NCBI GenBank assembly: GCA_035546615.1
Contig: DASZWM010000005.1
Coordinates: forward strand, 32,001 to 96,000
Length of the DNA stretch: 64,000 bases
Origin: Minisyncoccota bacterium
GTDB taxonomy: Bacteria > Patescibacteriota > Minisyncoccia > Phycocordibacterales > SBAW01
Reading direction: 5' to 3'
Position 1 is the stretch's first letter. Every line of letters begins with the position of its first letter. Made by a program: the position numbers and the translations under genes. The notes beneath the pieces were generated by a model. It ran no database searches. It was not told where the DNA came from and worked only from the letters and a program-made list of their open reading frames with translations. This document shows, piece after piece, positions 20,173 to 45,490 of this stretch.

Positions 20173-20847
20173 ATGCTCGAAGGGAACATGGATATCCAGA
20201 TTGAGCGGCTGAAGAAAAATATAGACAAATTACAGAAGACGCATGGCCACCCGGACTATACAGCCTTGTACGGGACTGGCTGTATCGATCATCCGGACCT
20301 TTTTCTTATTCTTATGAATCCGACCGCACGCAATATATCCGTGCACAAGGATTGGAAGGGTCTTAAGGCTTCCTGGCTCGGGACAAAGAACTTTTGGAAG
20401 ATACTCTATAAACTCGAACTGATCTCGGCCAAAACTTTTGCAGCTACCCAGGAACGCGCCCCGGCCGAATGGGACAATGATTTCTGCGTCGCGGTGTATA
20501 CGGAGCTGGCGCGCAACAAGGTTTTTATCACCAACTTAGGCCGTTCAACCCAGCCTGACGCTCGACCACTCCCTGACGCGGTATATAAAGCGTGCGTTGC
20601 GCTCACCCAGGAAGAGATAAACGCAGTGAAGCCTAAAGTGGTCGTTCTCTTCGGGAATCAAGTAAGCTCAGCTTTGCTTGAAACACCGATCAAGGTTTCT
20701 GAAACCCGCAAGAAACGTTTTGATCTTGAGATAGGCGGTACGGTGTATCCCGTATATGCCACCTATTACCCGGTCGGCATGGGATTTATGAATGCCGATA
20801 AGACGATCGAAGATGTTCGCTGGATTCGCAAGGCGCATTCACGATAG
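20173..20847 (+). CDS. Uracil-DNA glycosylase superfamily protein; family uncertain.
   Basis: LFLILMNPTARN resembles the UDG/MUG motif-A region (GxNPG-like). A Tyr/Pro-rich motif-B-like stretch (TYYPVGMGF) lies near the C-terminus. 224 aa. Confidence 0.4.
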   Translation: MLEGNMDIQIERLKKNIDKLQKTHGHPDYTALYGTGCIDHPDLFLILMNPTARNISVHKDWKGLKASWLGTKNFWKILYKLELISAKTFAATQERAPAEWDNDFCVAVYTELARNKVFITNLGRSTQPDARPLPDAVYKACVALTQEEINAVKPKVVVLFGNQVSSALLETPIKVSETRKKRFDLEIGGTVYPVYATYYPVGMGFMNADKTIEDVRWIRKAHSR

Positions 20848-32093: not shown

Positions 32094-32507
32094 ATGCTGG
32101 AAGAAGGGAAGACTTTTGTTACTTTTGCGCAGATCCATTTTTCTACTCAAGGAGGCGGTCAGCTCAATCTTGCGGAGATTGAGGAAAAATTCCGTGCCAT
32201 CCTCGCAGAAGAACCCTCTCGTTGGGAAGTGGAGTGGTTAAGGGCAGAAGACGCTACCGCAGGCGGCCTGCGCATGTCTTTCGCGCTTACAGATGCGGCG
32301 ATCCTCTACTTCGGTTGTCGTTCCGGTAGCGAGCGCGATATTTCCATCCAGGAAATATCATGTCTCATGGATTGGGTTGGGAGTATAACTAAGAAATTCT
32401 CCGAAGCCGAGTTCAAGTTTGGACTGCCGGTATTCGTGAGCGGTGGAGTCCAACTCAACAGCAGCACAGGCGCTTACGCAACTAAAGCTTTTTCTGCCAC
32501 CATATAG
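32094..32507 (+). CDS. Hypothetical protein.
   Basis: 137 aa, strong RBS AAGGAGG 7 nt upstream. Occupies the position where rplA normally follows rplK. Local GC content is reduced. Confidence 0.45.
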   Translation: MLEEGKTFVTFAQIHFSTQGGGQLNLAEIEEKFRAILAEEPSRWEVEWLRAEDATAGGLRMSFALTDAAILYFGCRSGSERDISIQEISCLMDWVGSITKKFSEAEFKFGLPVFVSGGVQLNSSTGAYATKAFSATI

Positions 32508-32616: not shown

Positions 32617-33321
32617 ATGAAGCCCAACGTCTCTCTTCCTACCTGGATTCAGGACTTGATGGTGACGTGGGTCCGGCCCCAAGTCACTCTCCGCAAAGTG
32701 GTGCGGTGGAGCAAATACCGCAAGCGCGGCACGCGCCGCCAAGACACGCTCCAGCACACGCTCTCGCTTCTCTTGTTCGCAACGTGGGCGTTCCCGCTTT
32801 TCAGGCCCCATGTGCGGTTCGACGAATCGCTGCTCTTCCGTACCCTTTTGCTCCACGACTTCGGGGAGGGGGAAACGCAGAAGGGCGACACCCTTTACAT
32901 CGACAAGACGCGCGGCGGCGACCTGGCGGAAACCGCGGCGTTCATGGAACGGTTCGGCATCGTTATCGGCCAGGAAGGCACTAAGGCCTTTCTTCTCCAG
33001 TTCGCGAAAAACGCGAACCAGATGGGCGAATTCAGAAGCATTCTGCAGGGGATTAAGAAGAAATACCCCGTCGAATGCCTGCTGTTCGACGCCCTGGAGC
33101 GCTTCGACTACTTTCTCTACGCTCTCGAGCAGTATCGGGAACTTGGGAAGGCGAAGATCCTGGTGCAGGTGTTGCGCCATCAGATACCGCACTTCGAGCG
33201 TCTGTCACGCGAGCTGCCCGGCTTCAAACAGGTGCTCTGGCGGCCCGACTTGGCCGGCTGGTGCTCGCTGTTCCTCAGCCGCTACGACGGTCAGTGGATC
33301 GAGCAGAAGGGCGAAAAGTGA
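32617..33321 (+). CDS. HD-domain phosphohydrolase, YfbR-like 5'-deoxynucleotidase (tentative).
   Basis: H..H.LS ... LLHDFGEGE matches the HD motif (H...HD..E) of YfbR-type 5'-nucleotidases. Start set at MKPNVSL with an AGGAG RBS. Confidence 0.55.
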   Translation: MKPNVSLPTWIQDLMVTWVRPQVTLRKVVRWSKYRKRGTRRQDTLQHTLSLLLFATWAFPLFRPHVRFDESLLFRTLLLHDFGEGETQKGDTLYIDKTRGGDLAETAAFMERFGIVIGQEGTKAFLLQFAKNANQMGEFRSILQGIKKKYPVECLLFDALERFDYFLYALEQYRELGKAKILVQVLRHQIPHFERLSRELPGFKQVLWRPDLAGWCSLFLSRYDGQWIEQKGEK

Positions 33322-33363
33322 ACCAATATCGCCCGTCCCGGAACCCGGGACGGGCGATATTTT

Positions 33364-35478
33364 TTAGACGGCTGCAACAGGATTTCTTTCGACGATATCC
33401 TGGGTGCCGCGCTTGTAGTTGAAGCGGTCTTCGCTTGAGTCTATGTGGAGTATTAATCCTTCGCTCTTCAATTCCCGAAGCATAAGCGCGCCGATGTTCT
33501 GGGAAATAACGCGGAGCGTTGGATGTACGGAAATGCCCGAACGCAGCTCGACGACAAAGGCTAGCGCGGGCAGGTCGCCGGTAATGCGGCAGGCAACCTG
33601 GTATCCCATCGGGACATAATACTGGGCTAGGGTAGGGGACAGATTCAGCCTCTCGAGGCCTGCAACGTAGCGGGCGAGAAAAGCTTTCGCCTCGTCCGCG
33701 AGCTGTTGCGGTACCTGGCTGAAGTACCATTCGCCGAACCCGTGCTTCGTCGTCAGAAGCGGCATCCGCTGGGTGATGGAACGATGCCGGTGCAGGTCGC
33801 GGAACGAGCCGAAGTCGAGCGGAAACGAGAACTGCATCCCTCCGGCTTCCGCAAGGAATTTCGGCAGCTCCGCTTTTGCGGGGCGGCTGTCCAGGATATG
33901 GCGATGCTTCTGGAGCAGTCGCGGTTCCACGGTATTCCGCAGCAGAAGAACATTTCCGTATCCGGCCTTCGAGCCATTAAGGGTCGGTTCTGCTTCAGCG
34001 GAATAGTAGTACGCATTCTGCATCCACTCTTCGACGTATTCTTCCTGTGCAGAGTAGCGCTTAGCGAAGCCGGAATTCGGATACTTCTCCATTAGCGCTT
34101 CGCCCACCGCATTTGCGATATCGCGCACTTCTGCAAGCGGATGATGGCGCAGGCGCAGGAGATGGTCGGAAGCGTGCCGCAGCTCGGTATGCCACGCGAG
34201 GTTCGTTGCGGCGCCGGCAGGCAGGAATCCCCGCATGATATCGAACGCGCGGGCATTGATGGCCTTCTGCCAAACCTTCTCGTCCTCATCAGTTTGGCGC
34301 GGATGGCGCTTGGCGAGCTCTTCCTTCATGGTTTCGAGCCCATTCAGATGGAATGCGCGCAGCGATTCAAGGAGCTCTGCGCCCTCTGGGGAGTTGTGCG
34401 GATTGCCGAACGCCTGTTTGGAGAAGTCGATGTAACGAGTCGAGGATTCCTGCCCATTGTAGAGCTGGGAGTCTTGTACCGCTTTCGCCGCGAGCATCGA
34501 CACTCCTTCTATAAAGATGGTCGCCGTGCCGTCATCGCCGATGGATTTGTCGCCGTAACCGACATAGTAGGTCTGCATGAAATCTTGGGCGCCCCGCTTG
34601 GCAAGCCTGATCAGGTGCGCATCTATGCCGCCCAGGGAGCGCGAATGAAGTGCTTGAAGCATTGCATCTTCCTCAGCATTGATGATAGCGCCGGTGTCGA
34701 GTACGACTACCTGCCCGTTTCCTGGGAGCGGCTTGCGTACGTGTTTCAGGTCTTCGTATTTTGTAGCAGTTCCTTTTTGTACTTGTTCCTGCGCGGGTGC
34801 GGCGCGTTGTCCGATGTCGCGATCAAGGTAGAGGCGGGGGAGCATCTGCTCAGGGGTCCAGCTGCTTTTTACCTCTTCAAGGTTCGTGCTGACCTGATAT
34901 TTGCCGCTCTTGGTGTAATCGGACTGTAGAATAGGCCCGGTCTCGAAGAAGATGATCTGCGCGATGCGGCGGCCGACCACAAGCGGAATGATGTAATTCT
35001 TGGAGTTGTTGGTTATCTCCATCGTCCAGCGGTTGACGTATCCGACGTCGCCCCAGCCGGCACATTTGCACACTTCTATGAAGTTGCGGCCCATGCTTGA
35101 GCGCGCCTTCATCATCGTCGTGATATGGTCGCGCCCGCCGATGAACTCGTTCGTATGCGCGAGGATGGTTTCGCCGGGCCGCAGGATGATGACCTTGTCC
35201 TCCGGGCTGATGCCGTCCCACTCAAAGTTATATTTTTCGAACGCTTCCTTCGCGGGTACCGCCCGCTCCACCTTAGAGGCGCCCCACACATGCTCCATGT
35301 GCGCGCGGCTCCAGATGTTGTAGAGGCTGTGATTGTACTTGGTCGGCTGCTCGCGGAAGAAATGCTCCCCGAGCGTCACGTCGTAGGAAGAAGTGGCAAG
35401 ATTTTCCCGCTTGAACGGCTCTATAATGACGGAGCCTTCCTGCATCGCTTCGAGGATTTTCTTGTCCGATAGTGCCAT
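33364..35478 (-). CDS. Fusion protein: dCTP deaminase/dUTPase-fold domain (N-terminal) plus a tandem ThyX-like (flavin-dependent thymidylate synthase) region (C-terminal).
   Basis: The N-terminal about 190 aa (MALSDKKILEAMQEGSVIIEPF ... GWGDVGYVNRWTMEITNNS ... ) match the Dcd/Dut beta-jelly-roll family. The C-terminal about 170 aa align to ThyX: FSFPLDFGSFRDLHRHR against [13 protein letters not shown], and AQYYVPMGYQVACRITGDLPALAFVVELRSG against [31 protein letters not shown]. A degenerate upstream ThyX-like half (TATIFIEGVSMLAAKAVQDSQLYNGQESSTRYIDF against [33 protein letters not shown]) lacks the RHR motif. Confidence 0.6.
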   Translation of the reverse strand: MALSDKKILEAMQEGSVIIEPFKRENLATSSYDVTLGEHFFREQPTKYNHSLYNIWSRAHMEHVWGASKVERAVPAKEAFEKYNFEWDGISPEDKVIILRPGETILAHTNEFIGGRDHITTMMKARSSMGRNFIEVCKCAGWGDVGYVNRWTMEITNNSKNYIIPLVVGRRIAQIIFFETGPILQSDYTKSGKYQVSTNLEEVKSSWTPEQMLPRLYLDRDIGQRAAPAQEQVQKGTATKYEDLKHVRKPLPGNGQVVVLDTGAIINAEEDAMLQALHSRSLGGIDAHLIRLAKRGAQDFMQTYYVGYGDKSIGDDGTATIFIEGVSMLAAKAVQDSQLYNGQESSTRYIDFSKQAFGNPHNSPEGAELLESLRAFHLNGLETMKEELAKRHPRQTDEDEKVWQKAINARAFDIMRGFLPAGAATNLAWHTELRHASDHLLRLRHHPLAEVRDIANAVGEALMEKYPNSGFAKRYSAQEEYVEEWMQNAYYYSAEAEPTLNGSKAGYGNVLLLRNTVEPRLLQKHRHILDSRPAKAELPKFLAEAGGMQFSFPLDFGSFRDLHRHRSITQRMPLLTTKHGFGEWYFSQVPQQLADEAKAFLARYVAGLERLNLSPTLAQYYVPMGYQVACRITGDLPALAFVVELRSGISVHPTLRVISQNIGALMLRELKSEGLILHIDSSEDRFNYKRGTQDIVERNPVAAV

Positions 35479-35484
35479 AATCGA

Positions 35485-35528
35485 GTGAAGTGAGTGAAAT
35501 AAAGTTTACTTTAATTCCGAACGAAGGA
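35485..35528 (+). repeat. About 45 nt intergenic motif, copy 2 (see 22261..22305).
   Basis: Sits in the divergent region between the Dcd-ThyX gene (-) and tmk (+). Followed by AT-rich TATATAAT and the palindrome AATTGC-GAA-GCAATT. Confidence 0.6.
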
Positions 35529-35608
35529 TGATTATATAATTGCGAAGCAATTCTATACGGTATAGTGTGTTTCGGGAGTACTATACCACTGTGGAGAGGG
35601 GAACAAGT

Positions 35609-36247
35609 ATGGACAAACGCGGAAAATTTATCGTAATTGACGGCATGGACGGCTCCGGCAAGGGGACGCAGATAAAACTGCTCCAGGAGCGGCTTGCGGA
35701 CAAGGGCGTGCTCTTCACTCGGGAGCCGGGCGGCTCGCCGCTTGGAGAGGAGATCCGGGAGATATTATTGAGGACCGAAGGAAATTCGCGCGGCCCGTTA
35801 GCGGACCTCTTTCTCTTCTTCGCGTCGCGGGCGTCGCATGTGGAGGATACCGTTACGCCGGCGCGCGAGCGCGGTACGCACGTCATAAGCGACCGGTACG
35901 CTTCCTCTACCTACGCCTTCCAGGCCTACGGGGAAGAGAAGCGCGAATTGCTGCCGCTTTTTGATGCGGTCATGCATTCGCTCGACCGGGCGAAGTACTG
36001 GCCGGACCTCTATCTCATCCTCGACCTTCCCGGCGAAATGGCCTACGAGCGCAGAAGGAAGGATGCCGCGCAGGCGAAAAGCGGTTTTGATCTCAAGCCG
36101 CTCGCATACCATGAGCGCACGCGAGAAGGCTTTAAGGCGTTCGCCAAAAGCTACGGTCCGGTCGAATTTGTCGACGCGAGCCGTAGCCCTCAGGAAATCC
36201 ATGCCGATATCTGGAACATTGTCGCTCCCATGGTAGGATTTAAATAA
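35609..36247 (+). CDS. tmk: Thymidylate kinase.
   Basis: KFIVIDGMDGSGKGTQ (P-loop), REPGGSPLGE, DRYASSTYAFQ (DRY motif region) and a lid-region Arg. Confidence 0.9.
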   Translation: MDKRGKFIVIDGMDGSGKGTQIKLLQERLADKGVLFTREPGGSPLGEEIREILLRTEGNSRGPLADLFLFFASRASHVEDTVTPARERGTHVISDRYASSTYAFQAYGEEKRELLPLFDAVMHSLDRAKYWPDLYLILDLPGEMAYERRRKDAAQAKSGFDLKPLAYHERTREGFKAFAKSYGPVEFVDASRSPQEIHADIWNIVAPMVGFK

Positions 36248-36297
36248 TATGATCTAGCGCGCTCAGAGACCGACTTACTTAGCTAACCGATATACCA

Positions 36298-37566
36298 ATG
36301 GATCTCTACGACGCTATACAAAAACAGGATAAGGACGTCTTCGCCACGCTTGAGGGCGAGGAAACGCGCGAGCGGGAAGGGCTTGAGCTCATTCCTTCCG
36401 AGAATTACGTTTCAAAAGCGGTGCGCCAGGCGCAGGGCTCGATATTCACCAACAAATATTCCGAAGGATATCCCGGAAAGCGCTACTACGGCGGACAGAC
36501 GTACACCGACCAGGTTGAGACGATAGCTATCGAGCGCGCCAAGCAATTGTTCGGCGCCAAATTCGCCAACGTGCAGACGCACTCGGGCGCCAACGCCAAC
36601 ATCGCGATGTACATGGCCTTGCTGCAGCCGGGGGACACGGTACTGGGTATGGATCTCAGCCACGGCGGGCATCTGACCCATGGCCACCCGGTTACCTATA
36701 TCACCAAGTTCTTCAACTTTGTGCGCTATAAGATGAAGGACCCGGAAACCGGTGAGATAGATTACGACGACATGCGGCGGGTGGCGCTTGAGGCCAAACC
36801 CAAGATAGTGCTGGCCGGATACTCGGCGTACTCCCGCGAGCTCGACTACGAAAAGATTTCTGCAATAGCAAAAGAGGTCGGCGCGTACGCGGTCATGGAT
36901 GCGGCGCATATCGCGGGCCTTATTGCCGGCGGCGTTGCGAAAAATCCGTTCGACTACGGCTTCGATATCATTACTTCAACTACGCATAAGACTTTGCGCG
37001 GCCCTCGCGGCGGGCTCATCCTGACGCGCGAGTCCGAAGACATTGCCAAAAAAGTGGACAAGGCGGTGTTTCCGGGTCTCCAAGGCGGCCCCTTGATGCA
37101 CGTGATAGCGGGAAAGGCGGTCGCCTTCGGCGAGGCGCTTTCTCCGAAGTTCAAAGTGTATGCGGCGCAGATACTCAAGAACGCCAAAGCGATGGAAGAA
37201 GTATTTCGTGCTGCCAATGTGCGCATGCTCGGCGGCGGCACATCTAACCACCTTATTCTCGCCGATGTGTTCGGCAGCCTCGGCATCCCCGGGAAAGAAG
37301 CGGAAGTTTTGCTCGACCGCGTGGGCATCACGCTTAACAAGAATGTCATCGCAGATGACACGAGGAACCCCATGGACCCGTCCGGCATTCGCTTCGGCAC
37401 ACCGGCCATAACGACGCGCGGGTTCAAGGAAGGGGAGTCCGCCCGCGTAGCCGAGCTTATGCTTGAGGCTATGAAGAATCGCACTGATGAAGCGAAGCTC
37501 GACGCTATCCGCGAGGAGATAAAGGACCTCTGCGCGAAATTCCCGATTCCGGACTCGTTCGTATAA
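36298..37566 (+). CDS. glyA: Serine hydroxymethyltransferase.
   Basis: LELIPSENYVS, KYSEGYPGKRYYGG, PLP-Lys motif TTHKTLRGPRGGLI. 422 aa. Confidence 0.95.
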   Translation: MDLYDAIQKQDKDVFATLEGEETREREGLELIPSENYVSKAVRQAQGSIFTNKYSEGYPGKRYYGGQTYTDQVETIAIERAKQLFGAKFANVQTHSGANANIAMYMALLQPGDTVLGMDLSHGGHLTHGHPVTYITKFFNFVRYKMKDPETGEIDYDDMRRVALEAKPKIVLAGYSAYSRELDYEKISAIAKEVGAYAVMDAAHIAGLIAGGVAKNPFDYGFDIITSTTHKTLRGPRGGLILTRESEDIAKKVDKAVFPGLQGGPLMHVIAGKAVAFGEALSPKFKVYAAQILKNAKAMEEVFRAANVRMLGGGTSNHLILADVFGSLGIPGKEAEVLLDRVGITLNKNVIADDTRNPMDPSGIRFGTPAITTRGFKEGESARVAELMLEAMKNRTDEAKLDAIREEIKDLCAKFPIPDSFV

Positions 37567-37890: not shown

Positions 37891-39012
37891 ATGGTCATCC
37901 GCTCCGGATTTCATCGCCTCATCGAACTATGGGAGCGCTATGAGCGGCCGCTCGCGGCCGGTTCGCTCATCATTGGCTTCATATTCGACCTGTTCATCGC
38001 GCGCAGGCCGGACAACGTGTTCAACAACATCCTCCTGCTCACGTACCTCTTCATTGCGGCGGCGCTCATACTCATCCTCAATATCCGCACGTACCGCCGC
38101 AAGAGCGAGGAGCCTGAAGCAACGCCGCTCTTCCTCCTGCTTGTGCTCCAGTTCTGCTTCGGAGGCCTGGCCTCCAACATGCTGGTGCTGTACGGCAAAA
38201 GCGGCACCTTCGCGGGCTCCGCGCTTTTTCTCCTGCTCCTGCTCGGCATGCTCATAGGCAACGAGTTTTTGAAGTCCCGCTACGCGCAGCTGCGCTTCAA
38301 TATCGTCATCTACTACACCCTGCTCCTGACCTACTGCATCATCGCGGTGCCGACGTTCCTGCTGCACTCGGTCGGCACGCTCGTGTTCCTCGCAAGCGGC
38401 GTCCTAAGTCTCATTCTCATTGCGGGCTTCCTGTCGCTTGTGTACGTCATTATCTTCCGCGGCCGCGACCGCATCGCGCACCTGTACGAAGTGTCGATCC
38501 TGGTCGGGCTCGTGTTCCTTTTCTACAACCTCCTCTACTTTATGAACATCATCCCGCCCGTGCCGCTCTCGCTTCGCGACATCGGCGTGTACCACTCCAT
38601 TACTCGCCTGCCCACTTCCGCGGGCAGCGAGCAGGGGATATATTCCGCCACGTACGAAAAGGCGCCGTGGTACGAGTTCTGGCGCAGCACAAGCCCGACC
38701 TACACCGTATTCTCCTCCGGAGAGGCCGCATGCTTCTCGTCCGTCTTCGCGCCCACCAACCTGTCCGCTCCCATTTACCACCGCTGGGAAAAGCATAACG
38801 ACGAGAAGAACACCTGGGCCACGGCGGCGCGCATCTCGTTCGACATAAGCGGCGGACGCGACGCCGGGTATCGCGGATTCACGACAAGCGCCGTCAGCCC
38901 CGGCCGCTGGCGCTGCGACGTGGAAACCGAAGGCGGCGCGCTCATCGGCAGGACCTCCTTCACCGTCGAGTCGGCCTCGACGACCCCCGCGCTTTCGACA
39001 AAAACCCTCTAG
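37891..39012 (+). CDS. Hypothetical polytopic membrane protein with a C-terminal extracytoplasmic domain.
   Basis: 373 aa. Six to eight TM helices in the first 230 aa, then a soluble Cys-containing C-terminal region. No motif recognised. Confidence 0.45.
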   Translation: MVIRSGFHRLIELWERYERPLAAGSLIIGFIFDLFIARRPDNVFNNILLLTYLFIAAALILILNIRTYRRKSEEPEATPLFLLLVLQFCFGGLASNMLVLYGKSGTFAGSALFLLLLLGMLIGNEFLKSRYAQLRFNIVIYYTLLLTYCIIAVPTFLLHSVGTLVFLASGVLSLILIAGFLSLVYVIIFRGRDRIAHLYEVSILVGLVFLFYNLLYFMNIIPPVPLSLRDIGVYHSITRLPTSAGSEQGIYSATYEKAPWYEFWRSTSPTYTVFSSGEAACFSSVFAPTNLSAPIYHRWEKHNDEKNTWATAARISFDISGGRDAGYRGFTTSAVSPGRWRCDVETEGGALIGRTSFTVESASTTPALSTKTL

Positions 39013-42058: not shown

Positions 42059-45000
42059 TTGGATATGTCCGAAGTGGGGAAGTCAGAAGTGGCCAAGCGC
42101 GAGGAGAAAGTACTCGCTTTTTGGAAAGAACAGCAGATATTCGAGCGCAGCGTTGGGAAGCGCGCGCCGCGCGGCGAATTCACCTTTTATGACGGCCCGC
42201 CGTTCGCAACCGGCCTGCCGCACCACGGCAGCCTCCTGTCCTCGATAATTAAGGACGTCGTTCCGCGCTATAAGACCATGCGCGGCTACCGCGTCCCGCG
42301 CCGCTGGGGCTGGGACTGCCACGGGCTTCCCATCGAGAACCTGGTCGAAAAGAAGCTCGGCCTCAAGACAAAGAAAGACATTCTTTCCATCGGCATCGAT
42401 ACGTTTAACGAGGAGGCGCGCTCGACCGTGCTCCAATACGTGCACGACTGGGAGCAGTACGTGGACCGCGTGGGCCGCTGGGTGGATTTCAGGAACTCGT
42501 ACAAGACGATGGACAACTCGTATATCGAGACCGTCTGGTGGGCGCTCAAGGAAATGCAGGACAAGAAGCTTTTGTACGAGGGCCGGAAGGTGCTCATGTA
42601 CTGCCCGCACTGCGAAACGCCGCTTGCCAAGGCCGAAATTGCCGCCGACAATACCTACAAGGATATTACCGAGGAGGCCGTTACCATCAAGTTCAAGCTT
42701 AAGTATCCGCAGAAGTTCGGCCTTCCCGAAAATACGTATCTGCTTGCGTGGACGACGACCCCGTGGACGCTTCCGGGCAACGTGGGGCTCGCGGTCGGGC
42801 CTGACATCCCATACGTGCTTGTGGAGCAAAACGGCGAGTACCTCGTGCTTGCGCGCGACCTGAAAGGGCAGGCGTCCGGCACGGTCGCGGGAGAACTGCT
42901 CGGCCGGCAGATGGTCGGCGCGGACTACGAGCCGCTCTATCGCATCAATGCGGTAGAGGCGCACAAAGGAAGGAAGCATCAGGTGCTTGCGGCGGACTTC
43001 GTCACTACGACCGAAGGCACGGGCATCGTGCACACCGCCGTCATGTACGGCGAGGACGACTTCGCGCTCGGGCAAAAAGAGGGCTTGCCGATGGTGCAGC
43101 TCCTCAGCCAGAACGGCACGTACAACGACAACGCGCCGGAGTTCGTGCGCGGCGAGTATATAAAGAAGGCGGAGAAGCTCATCAAGGAAGACCTCGAGGA
43201 AAAGGGCCTGCTCTTTTCCCGCGCGAACCACACGCACTCCTACCCGCACTGCTGGCGCTGCGGCACCGCGCTCATCTACAACGCCGTCGCGTCCTGGTTC
43301 ATCAATATTCAGAAGGTGAAGGCGAAGATGCTTTCGGAGAACCAGAAGATAAACTGGGTGCCCGCGTACCTGCGCGACGGGCGGTTCAGGAACATCCTTG
43401 AGAACGCGCCGGATTGGACGATATCGCGCAACCGCTTCTGGGCCTCTCCCTTGCCGATATGGAAGGAGAAGGGCGGCAAGAACCTGATGGTCGTGGGTTC
43501 TGTCGAGGAATTGCTGAAAAAGACGAAGCGCTCCGGCAACAAGTACTTCGTGATGCGCCACGGAGAGGCGCGTCACAATGTGGAAGATGCCATGGACGGC
43601 GCCGGAAGGCCGGACAACCACCTGACCGACGCGGGGAGAGAATATGTGCGCGCGGCGGCGCAGGAGTTTAAAAAAAGGCAGGAGATAGACCTTATCGTTA
43701 TGTCTCCGTTCGTGCGCACCCGCGAAACTGCCGCTATCGTCCAGGAAGTATTCGGTCTTCCCGATTCTGCCGTGGCCGTCGATAACCGCCTCCATGAAAT
43801 AGGGTTCGGCGAGTTCGAAGGCAGGCCGCTCAGGGAGTGGGCGGAATTCTTCGGTTCGCTTGAGAACAGGTTCTTAAAGACTCCCGAAGGGGGAGAGCCG
43901 TTTAGCGACGTGCGCCGGCGCGTGGGGGATTTCCTGTTCGAGATAGAGCGCCGGTATGTGGGCAAGAATATCCTCATCGTGACCCACAAGGGGCCGGGCT
44001 GGCTGCTTAATGCGGTGGCAAAGCGCTACTCCGCCGCGCAGATAGCCAATGAAGAGGAATATTCGCCCTTCATGCGCAACGACAAGGCTCAGCGCATATA
44101 CGAGCTTCCGTTCACGCCCTTCCCGCACAATAAGGACTACGAGATGGACCTGCACCGCCCGTATATCGACGCGATAACGCTTGTGGACGCTCAAGGCCGC
44201 GGCTACGAGCGCATTCCGGAGGTCATCGACTGCTGGGTCGAGTCCGGCGCCATGCCGTACGCGAGCAATCACTACCCCTTTAAGAACAAGAACCGCTTCA
44301 ATCCGGCGCGCTTCTTCGGCTTGTGGCCGAAAGGTTTCCCGGCGCAGTTCATCGCCGAGTACATCGGGCAGACGCGCACCTGGTTCTACTACATGCTTGC
44401 GGTCAGCACCGTTCTCTCGGGACGGGCCTCATTCCAGAACGTGGTATCCACCGGCAACCTGCTTGCGGCGGACGGCGCGAAACTTTCCAAATCCAAGGGC
44501 AACTACACCGACCCGCTCAACATCATGAACCAGTTCGGCGCCGACGCGTACCGCTTCTACCTCATGGGCTCGGTCGTGATGAACAGCGAGGACCTCCAGT
44601 TCCGCGACGAGGACGTGCGCGAGGCCAACAACCGCGTGCTCGGCATACTTTGGAACTGCTACAAGTTCTTCGAGCTCTACAAAGACGAGCGCGACCCCGC
44701 GATACGCGCTCAGGATAGCTCGCACCCGCTTGATCGCTGGGTACTGTCGCTTCTTAACAAAACCACTGCCGCAGTAACGGCAGCGATGGAAGCGTACGAC
44801 ACGCCGGGGGCATGCAAGGCCCTGCGCGCGTTCGTCGACGACTACTCCACCTGGTATGTGCGCCGCTCGCGCGACCGCGTGAAGGGCGAGGATGAGGCTG
44901 ACAAGCAGTTCGCGCTCGCGACCCAGTACGAGGTGCTTTTAACGCTTTCGCAATTGTTCGCGCCCATCACGCCGTATATTTCCGAAAGCATCTACCGCTC

Positions 45001-45490
45001 AGCCGGCGGCGAAGAAGACAGTGTGCACCTGAGCGAGTGGCCGGAAGCCGGAGCCGTGGACGAGAAATTGCTTGCCGACATGGAGGTCGTGCGCAAGACC
45101 GCGTCGATGGCGCTGGAGGCGCGCGAGCGCGCCGGCATCAAGATACGCCAGCCGCTCGGGAAGCTCTCCGCAAAGTCCCTGCCCGCCGACTTGGGGCTTC
45201 GCCAGCTTATCGCCGAAGAAGTGAATGTGAAGGAGATCATTGAAGATGTCGTGATGGAAGATGACATATCGCTCGACACCACGATGACGCCGGAGTTGCG
45301 CGATGAGGGCATTATGCGCACGCTCATGCGCCGCGTGCAGGAATGGCGCAAGGACGAGCAGCTCACCATTGCCGACAGGCCGGACTACACGCTCGTCGTT
45401 ACCGCCGAAGAAAATCCCGTGGCGCAGAAGTACCGCGAAGAGATACGGAAAGCGACCGGCCTCAATAGCCTCGAAATAACGGTAGAATAG
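42059..45490 (+). CDS. ileS: Isoleucyl-tRNA synthetase (type 2, eukaryote-like), 1143 aa, with an inserted histidine-phosphatase (PGAM-like) domain.
   Basis: HIGH-equivalent PFATGLPHHGS, editing-domain region, WTISRNRFWASPLP, KMSKS as KLSKSKGN, C-terminal anticodon-binding region. Between WTISRNRFW and IDCWVESG sits FVMRHGEARHN ... LTDAGREYVRAAAQEF ... IDLIVMSPFVRTRETAAIV ... LHEIGFGEFEGRPL ... ILIVTHKGPG, which is collinear with phosphoglycerate-mutase/histidine-phosphatase motifs. Confidence 0.9.
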   Translation: MDMSEVGKSEVAKREEKVLAFWKEQQIFERSVGKRAPRGEFTFYDGPPFATGLPHHGSLLSSIIKDVVPRYKTMRGYRVPRRWGWDCHGLPIENLVEKKLGLKTKKDILSIGIDTFNEEARSTVLQYVHDWEQYVDRVGRWVDFRNSYKTMDNSYIETVWWALKEMQDKKLLYEGRKVLMYCPHCETPLAKAEIAADNTYKDITEEAVTIKFKLKYPQKFGLPENTYLLAWTTTPWTLPGNVGLAVGPDIPYVLVEQNGEYLVLARDLKGQASGTVAGELLGRQMVGADYEPLYRINAVEAHKGRKHQVLAADFVTTTEGTGIVHTAVMYGEDDFALGQKEGLPMVQLLSQNGTYNDNAPEFVRGEYIKKAEKLIKEDLEEKGLLFSRANHTHSYPHCWRCGTALIYNAVASWFINIQKVKAKMLSENQKINWVPAYLRDGRFRNILENAPDWTISRNRFWASPLPIWKEKGGKNLMVVGSVEELLKKTKRSGNKYFVMRHGEARHNVEDAMDGAGRPDNHLTDAGREYVRAAAQEFKKRQEIDLIVMSPFVRTRETAAIVQEVFGLPDSAVAVDNRLHEIGFGEFEGRPLREWAEFFGSLENRFLKTPEGGEPFSDVRRRVGDFLFEIERRYVGKNILIVTHKGPGWLLNAVAKRYSAAQIANEEEYSPFMRNDKAQRIYELPFTPFPHNKDYEMDLHRPYIDAITLVDAQGRGYERIPEVIDCWVESGAMPYASNHYPFKNKNRFNPARFFGLWPKGFPAQFIAEYIGQTRTWFYYMLAVSTVLSGRASFQNVVSTGNLLAADGAKLSKSKGNYTDPLNIMNQFGADAYRFYLMGSVVMNSEDLQFRDEDVREANNRVLGILWNCYKFFELYKDERDPAIRAQDSSHPLDRWVLSLLNKTTAAVTAAMEAYDTPGACKALRAFVDDYSTWYVRRSRDRVKGEDEADKQFALATQYEVLLTLSQLFAPITPYISESIYRSAGGEEDSVHLSEWPEAGAVDEKLLADMEVVRKTASMALEARERAGIKIRQPLGKLSAKSLPADLGLRQLIAEEVNVKEIIEDVVMEDDISLDTTMTPELRDEGIMRTLMRRVQEWRKDEQLTIADRPDYTLVVTAEENPVAQKYREEIRKATGLNSLEITVE

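Follow-up and report, generated by a model that had tools for sequence, protein, structure and literature searches.

The window, by which is meant the whole 64-kb stretch of DNA that was analysed, from an ultra-small bacterium of the Patescibacteria, probably encodes on one polypeptide two consecutive enzymes of dTMP synthesis, a dCTP deaminase (DCD) and a double ThyX, which have been joined by the loss of a stop codon. What is unusual is the fusion, which is real but rare and young; the pathway itself is ordinary. The fused dcd-thyX coding sequence (33364..35478, minus strand) specifies 704 amino acids and a stop codon and has no internal stop in the ORF list, and Pfam matches both the DCD family (PF22769, aa 3-179, E 3.4e-30) and Thy1 (PF02511, aa 301-468, E 5.8e-15) within it. 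A preliminary description of this DNA had proposed the same uninterrupted frame and the order DCD, degenerate ThyX half, RHR-bearing ThyX half, together with the profile search just reported; frame, order and both families were borne out by the ORF list, the Pfam matches and the motifs given below. The DCD domain covers aa 1-222 and is followed by an 18-aa linker and the two-domain ThyX. An identical protein is held at NCBI under the label 'FAD-dependent thymidylate synthase [Candidatus Paceibacterota]'; a full-length single-sequence structure model of the 704-aa protein had a pLDDT of 32 and was unusable.

The origin of the fusion was traced by comparing the junction DNA and protein of the window with those of three related loci (L001, L002 and L004). 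The linker GQRAAPAQEQVQKGTATK (aa 223-240; 34759..34812, minus strand) stands at the position of a former dcd stop codon, intergenic spacer and thyX start codon, and the former thyX Met is Lys240 in the window. In close relatives dcd and thyX are distinct genes with 26-36 nt between them: L002, L003, L004 and L006 carry dcd genes of 224-250 aa and thyX genes of 465-483 aa in identical synteny, and in L004 the two share one reading frame, in which a lone TAG separates them. The wider set of unfused dcd and long thyX pairs, from Paceibacterota/Adlerbacteria MAGs (L002-L004, L006, L009-L015), shares with the window the synteny argS-DUF2914-glyA-tmk <> dcd-thyX-rplK-nusG-secE and is 69-86% identical to it in DCD and 62-74% in ThyX, but has a stop codon, a spacer of 26-36 nt that carries a ribosome-binding site, and a thyX ATG where the window has the 18-aa linker. 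An independent MAG (L001, GCA_035546075.1) is also fused, with DCD 94% and ThyX 67% identical to the window's; it retains the former thyX Met, and its linker differs in sequence and is 21 aa long, with the frame kept. As read from these junctions, the fusion is a young event by stop-codon loss and not an ancient architecture, its closest relatives having two genes; the comparison shows that dcd and thyX were joined when the dcd stop codon was lost and the short spacer came to be read through in frame.

The rarity of the fusion, which had been claimed beforehand, is confirmed by the survey: at 35 species-representative loci dcd and thyX lie side by side in the same direction, and at just one of these are they fused (77% identical to the window's protein); among the matches listed, only two proteins are fused. 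Because it is present in only two MAGs, the fusion may be selectively neutral. We accordingly regard as a serious possibility, at somewhat below even weight, that it is a tolerated accident, a chance in-frame stop loss between co-transcribed genes, after which the enzymes work as if separate, without channelling and without kinetic or regulatory benefit. The rarity speaks for such an accident, as does a gene order unfixed in the phylum (dcd precedes thyX at 14 loci and follows it at 20), and in L004 one nucleotide change would be enough to give the same product. It is harder to reconcile with an accident that the fusion has been kept in two lineages 33% apart in the ThyX part, that the two linkers, of 18 and 21 aa, have diverged in sequence and length with the frame preserved, and that the loss of the former thyX start codon has made the fusion obligate in the window, where ThyX can be made only as part of it. 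If the fusion is of use, the tether would fix a 1:1 stoichiometry and may favour the hand-over of dUMP. A trimeric DCD fold joined to a ThyX that assembles about two-fold axes leaves the fusion with a symmetry mismatch to resolve.

The DCD domain (aa 1-222; 34813..35478, minus strand) is complete, including the C-terminal tail ...MLPRLYLDRD(I) seen in free-standing relatives, and stand-alone Patescibacteria DCDs (225-254 aa) are 77-88% identical to it. It falls in PF22769, and its score against TIGR02274, an NCBIfam equivalog, is 90.4 bits, slightly below the cut-off of 92.8. Its best PDB matches are 4xjc and the DCD-DUT of M. jannaschii, 1ogh. In a residue-by-residue alignment to 1ogh, the catalytic block ARSSMGR...AGWGDVGY...TMEITN (35008..35106, minus strand) places S127, R131, D144 and E154 of the domain on M. 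jannaschii S118, R122, D135 and E145, and the printed sequences of 3gf0 and 2hxd carry a change at E145. The domain would thus belong to the dCTP deaminases of the trimeric dUTPase fold and convert dCTP to a deoxyuridine nucleotide.

The evidence leans slightly towards that nucleotide being dUMP, formed directly as by enzymes of the dCTP deaminase:dUTPase type, and otherwise it would be dUTP. Its bit scores fall from 57-58 for 4xjc and the M. jannaschii enzyme, which forms dUMP, to 34 for the M. tuberculosis chains, 13.5 for 4dhk and 11.6 for 2j4h, which we take to be E. coli Dcd; the domain also has the block AG(W/F)xDxG(F/Y) in common with 4xjc, the M. jannaschii enzyme and the M. tuberculosis chains. 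These likenesses speak against a monofunctional DCD, which would release dUTP and need a second enzyme, a dUTPase encoded elsewhere in the genome, before the ThyX step, and so do the lack of a dUTPase among the roughly 60 ORFs of the 64-kb window and the consideration that joining a DCD to a dUMP-using enzyme is most sensible if dUMP is its product. A monofunctional enzyme is nevertheless possible, if the less probable case, because the catalytic Ser, Arg and Glu are common to mono- and bifunctional enzymes, a TIGR02274 match cannot tell the two apart, and the search for dut was confined to the window, in which dut, thyA and a separate dcd are all absent.

The remainder of the chain (aa 241-704), on the reading preferred here, would be a flavin-dependent thymidylate synthase with two ThyX folds. 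The N-half (aa 241-490; 34009..34758, minus strand) contains the Pfam Thy1 match and aligns by hhalign with TM0449 over the full length (E 2.7e-4); its RHR is replaced by DSQ, and E344, S346, R348, Y349 and R416 are retained. Within it, LYNGQESSTRY (aa 339-349; 34432..34464, minus strand) provides the Ser-x-Arg-Tyr half of the ThyX motif, equivalent to T. maritima E86, S88, R90 and Y91. The C-half (aa 495-704; 33367..33996, minus strand) no longer has the Ser/Arg/Tyr block or an equivalent of R147 and retains R560, D561, R564, H565, R566 and R646, with the R..RHR half of the motif in FSFPLDFGSFRDLHRHR (aa 550-566; 33781..33831, minus strand), equivalent to T. maritima R74, Q75, R78, H79 and R80. 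Both motifs had been quoted in the preliminary description and are present; the 'LP...T...LR' block which it placed in the second half is clearer in the first (IMRGFLPAGAAT...RLR). It had also made its reading depend on a likeness of the C-terminal region to Thy1: the match of the C-half alone is weak (E 0.064), and 36 of 47 C-halves of family members match, the best at E 6.5e-08. The C-half is a ThyX fold.

The division of the motif is general in the family, as is seen from conservation across 243 members in T. maritima numbering, a mapping which was checked by hhalign against TM0449 (sequence verified against PDB 1kq4). N-halves conserve E86 (99%), S88 (100%), R90 (100%), Y91 (97%) and R147 (97%), and have Asp at the R78 position in 88% and no residue above 40% at the H79 and R80 positions. 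C-halves conserve R74, R78, R80 and R174 (each 100%) and H79 (87%), and have Leu at the S88 position (75%), Thr at the R90 position (74%) and Gln at the R147 position (98%). The ThyX serine, which had been thought not obvious, is therefore present in the first half as S346, conserved in 100% of members; in canonical ThyX this serine is not essential (PMC4913046). ThyX active sites lie at subunit interfaces, to which in PBCV-1 ThyX one monomer contributes Q75 and R182 and another S88/Q89, and in T. maritima dUMP is hydrogen-bonded by R78, R80, S88 and R90 (PMC3498832). Because each half retains residues that the other has lost, a single composite active site is predicted for each chain; the N-half would bring to it the dUMP-phosphate/uracil block and the C-half its six retained residues. 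This conservation bears out the earlier suggestion of an intramolecular pseudo-heterodimer, whose packing we infer from it; a dimer of chains with two sites would then take the place of the canonical homotetramer with four.

The double ThyX had been called unusual, but Patescibacteria ordinarily have their ThyX in this form, with hundreds of 50%-identity clusters, and a domain-duplicated ThyX was noted earlier in Chloroflexi 'and a few other species' (Valas & Bourne 2009, PMC3224940). That paper gives it one sentence, as not characterised, which is the only mention of a long ThyX family in the literature consulted, and contains neither a half-by-half analysis nor a DCD fusion; internal duplication is the likeness to the Patescibacteria proteins. 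The ThyX part is distant from canonical ThyX in sequence (30 bits against TIGR02170, cut-off 88), and sequence profiles of the long family found no PDB ThyX chains.

Such divergence, in an uncharacterised family, leaves some room for a different flavin-dependent pyrimidine C5-modifier, such as the hydroxymethylase suggested previously or a PolB-like UMP methylase, but this is improbable. Of the 86 loci that carry a dcd of this type, 39 have long thyX and 39 have thyA (35 with folA), never both, and the thyA and folA of relatives occupy the same chromosomal position as long thyX, which favours an ordinary thymidylate synthase and not a hydroxymethylase. Moreover, dcd, tmk and glyA are conserved neighbours, the latter two accompanying most of the 86 loci, each of the four T. 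maritima dUMP contacts is invariant (100%) in one of the two halves, and the 64-kb window contains no second thymidylate synthase. Least probable of all is that the one ORF arose through an error of assembly or sequencing and conceals two genes, as in all close relatives but one, since the same fusion recurs in a second MAG from another assembly, both linkers consist of whole codons and are GC-rich like coding sequence where the relatives' spacers are AT-rich, and the thyX ATG is lost in the window.

The cluster with tmk, glyA and an HD-domain gene, as first described, was recovered by profile matches. The tmk gene (dTMP kinase; 35609..36247, plus strand) scores 132 bits against TIGR00041 (cut-off 83) and has about 212 aa from the ATG at 35609, before which lies GGAGAGGGG; relatives have 201-227 aa. 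The mechanical ORF begins at TTG 35540. The 422-aa glyA (serine hydroxymethyltransferase; 36298..37566, plus strand) matches PF00464 (E 1e-148) and NF000586 (568 bits, cut-off 335). GlyA would supply methylene-THF, and Tmk would convert dTMP to dTDP. Downstream of glyA, as in relatives, is a DUF2914 membrane protein (37891..39012, plus strand; Pfam and synteny). The fusion gene and tmk diverge from a 130-bp AT-rich intergenic region (35479..35608), and no sigma-70 promoter of consensus type was detected there. Between the fusion gene and the convergent HD gene, a perfect palindrome with a 17-bp stem and T-rich tails (33325..33361) looks like a bidirectional terminator.

The HD gene (234 aa; 32617..33321, plus strand), whose identical NCBI protein is annotated as hypothetical (VHD55_02500), encodes a divergent HD_3 / YfbR-OxsA-like phosphohydrolase and is syntenic with the dcd/thymidylate synthase cluster in L006, L007, L008 and L041. 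Its own match to HD_3 (PF13023) is weak (E 0.005, 17.2 bits, below the Pfam cut-off of 22.5); 30 of 45 homologues match HD_3, 28 of 45 match HD, and only 5 of 45 match, weakly, the YfbR-like model PF12917. The family profile matches PDB 1xx7, 2cqz, 3kh1 and OxsA 5tk6, and H47, H80 and D81 are invariant. The metal-binding residues H...HD...D are held in common with YfbR, OxsA and PF0395-type HD_3 phosphohydrolases, from which the protein differs in being extended at its C-terminus by about 100 aa.

Three known systems bear comparison with the fusion. The M. jannaschii DCD-DUT (1ogh), which with 4xjc and M. tuberculosis 2qxx/2qlp is by far the top-scoring solved relative of the DCD domain, shares with it the fold family PF22769, aligns with it collinearly and at full length (aa 1-180) and has all four of its aligned catalytic residues kept; unlike it, the window's DCD carries ThyX at its C-terminus and lies below the equivalog cut-off, and its formation of dUMP is only predicted. 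Canonical homotetrameric ThyX/FDTS (T. maritima TM0449; PDB 1o26, 5chp; PF02511) has its dUMP-bonding residues wholly conserved in the long family, but in the window one chain holds two ThyX folds, the RHR-X7-S motif is divided, with RHR in the C-half only and S-x-R-Y in the N-half only, and 2 rather than 4 sites are predicted per 4 domains. The bifunctional DHFR-TS of protozoa and plants, a classic case in the discussion of substrate channelling, is likewise a natural fusion of two thymidylate-cycle enzymes, but its folds, ThyA and DHFR, are unrelated to those found here, it joins steps after methyl transfer where the window's fusion joins steps before it, and it is an ancient fusion, fixed across large clades, where the window's is young and rare.

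The 704-aa open reading frame at 33364..35478 (-) runs without interruption in the ORF list of the window, and its product, which is identical to an NCBI entry named 'FAD-dependent thymidylate synthase' from a MAG of Candidatus Paceibacterota (Patescibacteria/CPR), has two Pfam domains, a dCTP-deaminase-like one (aa 3-179, E 3.4e-30) and Thy1 (aa 301-468, E 5.8e-15), which together bear out the preliminary description of a minus-strand gene encoding a DCD domain followed by ThyX. The Thy1 match (PF02511) reaches 56 bits where the cut-off is 24.8, and TIGR02170 (thyX), at 30.1 bits, does not reach its cut-off of 87.9, which places the ThyX part of the fusion in a divergent subfamily rather than among the equivalogs of canonical ThyX. 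The second ThyX domain of the window (the C-half, aa 495-704) taken alone gives 13.5 bits against Thy1 (E 0.064); when the C-halves of 47 diverse family members are scanned singly, 36 match Thy1 (best 6.5e-08), and aa 495-704, modelled by AlphaFold from a 47-sequence alignment, have a mean pLDDT of 93.1. These matches and this model show two ThyX folds in tandem and uphold the earlier assignment of the C-terminal region to ThyX. A single-sequence AlphaFold prediction of the 704-aa protein (pLDDT 32) is unusable, and a search of PDB sequences with profiles of the whole double ThyX and of the C-half found no ThyX chain. Comparison of the C-half profile with that of the first ThyX domain (the N-half, aa 241-490) using hhalign gives a P of 0.17-0.59 with 24 close sequences, which is not significant, and a P of 0.01 with 243 sequences, which is collinear and weakly suggestive, so internal duplication is not demonstrable by sequence alone.

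The two halves differ systematically in the active-site residues that they retain. The sequence of TM0449, the T. maritima ThyX, was verified against PDB 1kq4 and then aligned to the profile of each half; each alignment runs collinearly from end to end (E 2.7e-4 for the N-half and 1.9e-3 for the C-half). Conservation was tabulated at T. maritima positions across 243 sequences of two-domain ("long") ThyX, and any replacement named here is the commonest one. R78, H79 and R80 are kept in the C-half (100%, 87% and 100%, respectively), and in the N-half R78 is now Asp (88%) while no residue exceeds 28% at H79 or 40% at R80. Conversely, the N-half keeps E86 (99%), S88 (100%), R90 (100%), Y91 (97%) and R147 (97%), positions which in the C-half are now Met (79%), Leu (75%), Thr (74%), no residue above 23%, and Gln (98%). 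R74 is conserved in all C-halves and occupied by K332 (99%) in the N-half; at Q75 the two halves have A333 (95%) and D561 (100%). R174, to which we take R182 of the PBCV-1 enzyme to correspond, is kept in 62% of N-halves and 100% of C-halves. The RHR-X7-S motif is accordingly intact in neither half, being DSQ-X7-S(TRY) in the N-half and RHR-X7-L in the C-half, and is complete only across both halves together; the ThyX serine that had not been obvious at first is present as S346 in the N-half.

In canonical ThyX the active sites lie at subunit interfaces, dUMP is hydrogen-bonded by R78, R80, S88 and R90 in the T. maritima enzyme, and the uracil pocket of the PBCV-1 enzyme combines Q75 and R182 of one monomer with S88/Q89 of a second (PMC3498832; PMC4913046); canonical ThyX can do without the serine of the motif (PMC4913046). 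The residues kept in each half are those expected if the C-half acted as "monomer A" and the N-half as "monomer B" at one composite site, in which case the reciprocal site would have decayed and a dimer of chains would replace the tetramer, presumably with two sites instead of four. The complementary residue split thus lends support to the intramolecular ThyX pseudo-heterodimer of the preliminary description, but not to its supposed unusualness, since the form is phylum-wide and had already been noticed. The split is the most useful by-product of the analysis, because residues given by different subunits of the canonical site have been sorted onto two domains of one chain, and the very large asymmetric subfamily so defined offers enzymologists a natural means of working out the roles of the subunits and half-of-sites behaviour in an enzyme family that is an antibiotic target. 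At the position of T. maritima H53, long ThyX has His in 74% of sequences and Asp in 25%; the window (fusion aa 310, nt 34549..34551) and its closest relatives have Asp.

The strongest basis for assigning a function to the ThyX module is genomic. In 86 loci with this type of dcd, the 4 kb around dcd contain a long thyX in 39, thyA in 39 and both in none; folA accompanies thyA in 35 of the 39 thyA loci, and tmk and glyA lie alongside in most of the 86. Exchange in place of thyX for thyA plus folA argues for an ordinary thymidylate synthase, and it is the counter-evidence to the earlier suggestion of a hydroxymethylase or other modified-pyrimidine synthase, because the two modules occupy the same position and never occur together in these loci. 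In related Paceibacterota the exchange is a clean non-orthologous replacement, in place, of one thymidylate synthase module by another, as in two loci (L007, 7753..9786, and L008, 5590..8361) that have dcd-thyA-folA where the window has dcd-thyX. Three loci (L028, L062 and L068) combine a long thyX with a DHFR-like tblastn match within 4 kb of dcd, a surprising pairing, as dihydrofolate is not a product of ThyX. The conserved island of dcd, thyX or thyA plus folA, tmk and glyA would account for the dTMP supply of organisms that are usually called nucleotide auxotrophs, and the fusion acts as a Rosetta-stone link that marks the DCD and long ThyX of Patescibacteria as consecutive steps.

The origin of the fusion can be read from close relatives that share the synteny of the window, argS-DUF2914-glyA-tmk <> dcd-thyX-(HD)-rplK-nusG-secE. 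In these loci (L002/L003, L004, which is the same as L010, and L006) separate genes encode the DCD (224-250 aa) and the ThyX (465-483 aa), with a gap of 26-36 nt between them. The two genes of L004 share a reading frame, with the junction ...DRDIKKK*SCSGSSLQKGHDMDDHQ..., and one change in the TAG codon would be enough to join them; the corresponding junctions are ...DRDIGQRAAPAQEQVQKGTATKYEDLKHVRK... in the window and ...DRDIGARTTPSDGQTQASKGATAMRYEDLKHVRK... in the second fused locus, L001. The junction sequences show that the fusion arose by loss of the stop codon between dcd and thyX, and both domains are complete in the product. The former initiator Met of thyX is kept in L001 and is Lys in the window, where the lack of an in-frame internal start means that ThyX is made only as a fusion. 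An assembly artefact is ruled out because the two fused MAGs are divergent (94% identity in DCD and 67% in ThyX, that is, differences of 6% and 33%) and the linker is a whole number of codons in each; the possibility, raised in the preliminary description, that a frameshift has joined two genes fails on the same grounds.

The double ThyX and the fusion differ greatly in abundance. The homologue search returned more than 100 ThyX-only proteins of approximately 424-492 aa, which cover 61-68% of the query and come from Kaiser-, Nomura-, Uhr- and Paceibacterota, and an exhaustive search against 1.84 billion representatives yielded 825 matches below 1e-30, of which the best 150 to the full-length query are all single-module proteins. 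The double ThyX is therefore the norm in the Patescibacteria phylum; among ten distant long-ThyX cluster representatives, one is named, as Nomurabacteria. The DCD module is likewise standard in relatives: the fusion DCD shares 77-88% identity with stand-alone DCDs of 223-254 aa, and a DCD-only query returned stand-alone DCDs only among the matches listed. Across Patescibacteria the DCD module (34813..35478), with 77-88% identity over the best 120 clusters, is much more conserved than the ThyX module (33367..34758), with 52-77%.

Both domains occur together in just one other protein (P0002, partial, 77% identical, GCA_035546075.1), in keeping with the rarity that had been claimed for the fusion. 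A scan of one genome per species identified 37 loci with adjacent dcd and thyX, in the order dcd>thyX (14 unfused, plus the fused L001), thyX>dcd (20) or on opposite strands (3), and a stop-to-stop ORF test left L001 as the only fused locus among them. L068 was rejected as a fusion, as the tblastn alignment merely ran across a stop codon; a single in-frame stop separates its dcd and thyX. Adjacent dcd and long thyX genes often lie only 6-40 nt apart, at times in the same frame (L009-L040), so several lineages, in either gene order, are one mutation from fusion. The DCD-ThyX fusion is thus the truly unusual part, a young stop-codon-loss event in two MAGs, and this youth and confinement give it modest biological weight. 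A domain-duplicated ThyX, described as "not characterised", was reported in 2009 from Chloroflexi and "a few other species" (PMC3224940), and this remark is the only mention of a Dcd-ThyX fusion or tandem ThyX, with no later study, that was found in the literature, where no biochemical report on long ThyX was found either. The domain architecture is new, but as a variant of kinds already known.

The neighbouring genes fit a housekeeping setting. The adjacency of tmk (35609..36247, +) and glyA (36298..37566, +) to the fusion, as first described, is substantiated by scores well over the NCBIfam cut-offs (132.4 versus 83.25 bits for TIGR00041 and 567.8 versus 335 bits for NF000586). The mechanical ORF start of tmk is 35540; the ATG at 35609, preceded by GGAGAGGGG, gives 212 aa, a length that agrees with relatives. 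Between the fusion gene and the convergent HD gene (32617..33321, +; 234 aa) is a perfect palindrome (33325..33361) with a 17-bp stem, a 3-nt loop and T-rich tails flanking it on both strands, which looks like a bidirectional intrinsic terminator. The HD gene belongs to a conserved Paceibacterota family of approximately 233-257 aa, for which "YfbR-like nucleotide phosphohydrolase", the family-level label proposed for it, is fair, with 5'-deoxynucleotidase as a candidate activity: across 45 homologues H47 and H80 never vary and D81 and D164 are conserved in at least 90%, preserving the metal-binding H...HD...D, and HD_3 is matched by 30 of the 45 and HD by 28. The window protein itself is sub-threshold (17.2 versus 22.5 bits), and PF12917 (YfbR) gives weak matches in 5 of the 45 only (best 0.015). 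A profile of the family matches the HD phosphohydrolases 1xx7, 2cqz, 3kh1 and OxsA, the nearest solved relatives being 1xx7, 2cqz and OxsA, and in L006, L007, L008 and L041 the gene adjoins the dcd/thymidylate-synthase cluster, irrespective of the type of synthase.

Two other readings were rejected: phage origin, in view of the ribosomal and aminoacyl-tRNA-synthetase neighbours and a composition without a break, and a defence-type dCTP deaminase, in view of the absent kinase domain and the housekeeping synteny. Between rplK and the HD gene lies a 137-aa ORF without a Pfam match (32094..32507, +), which overlaps the GTG-started mechanical version of the HD ORF and has unannotated counterparts of 92-134 aa at the same place in relatives. 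An isoleucyl-tRNA synthetase of 1143 aa (42059..45490, +) has a His_Phos_1 (histidine-phosphatase) domain (aa 497-659) that separates the two parts of its class-I catalytic domain, and the same architecture is listed for the enzymes of L003 and L004.

No dut, thyA, folA or second thyX or dcd is found among the approximately 60 ORFs within the 64-kb window. A uracil-DNA-glycosylase-superfamily gene (20173..20847, +; PF03167, E 9.5e-08) bears on the handling of uracil in DNA if the organism is without dUTPase. It is conceivable, but we think it improbable, that tethering a trimeric DCD to a two-fold double ThyX generates a closed assembly that converts dCTP to dTMP without releasing dUTP or dUMP and reuses the "dead" half-site. 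Such an assembly could be, for example, a D3 hexamer in which two DCD trimers are bridged by three ThyX dimers, with the "dead" half-site serving perhaps in regulation or docking; if this were true, a genome possibly lacking dUTPase could keep uracil out of its DNA.

Deamination of dCTP by the DCD domain is a well-supported prediction. PF22769 matches at 105.6 bits (cut-off 27) over profile positions 2-152 of 153, and TIGR02274 (dCTP_deam), at 90.4 bits, falls marginally under its equivalog cut-off of 92.8. A related CPR/Chloroflexi-type enzyme, the Dcd found in Dictyostelium, can complement a dcd mutant of E. coli (PMC10733785). When the domain is aligned with 1ogh by phmmer, S118, R122, D135 and E145 of the M. 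jannaschii enzyme align with S127, R131, D144 and E154 of the fusion; the printed sequences of 3gf0 and 2hxd differ from 1ogh at the Glu (E145). The M. jannaschii enzyme is labelled "dCTP deaminase, dUMP-forming" in the PDB, and dUMP is also the product of the enzymes of B. halodurans (4xjc) and M. tuberculosis. Direct formation of dUMP by the fusion is likely, with the reservation that no sequence rule separates dUMP- from dUTP-releasing chemistry; fusion to ThyX also argues that the DCD product is the ThyX substrate, dUMP. Among solved enzymes the DCD domain is much nearer to 4xjc (57.9 bits), the M. jannaschii enzyme (57.3 bits) and the M. tuberculosis chains 2qxx/2qlp (34 bits) than to 4dhk (only 13.5 bits) or 2j4h (11.6 bits), the latter of which we take to be E. 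coli Dcd.
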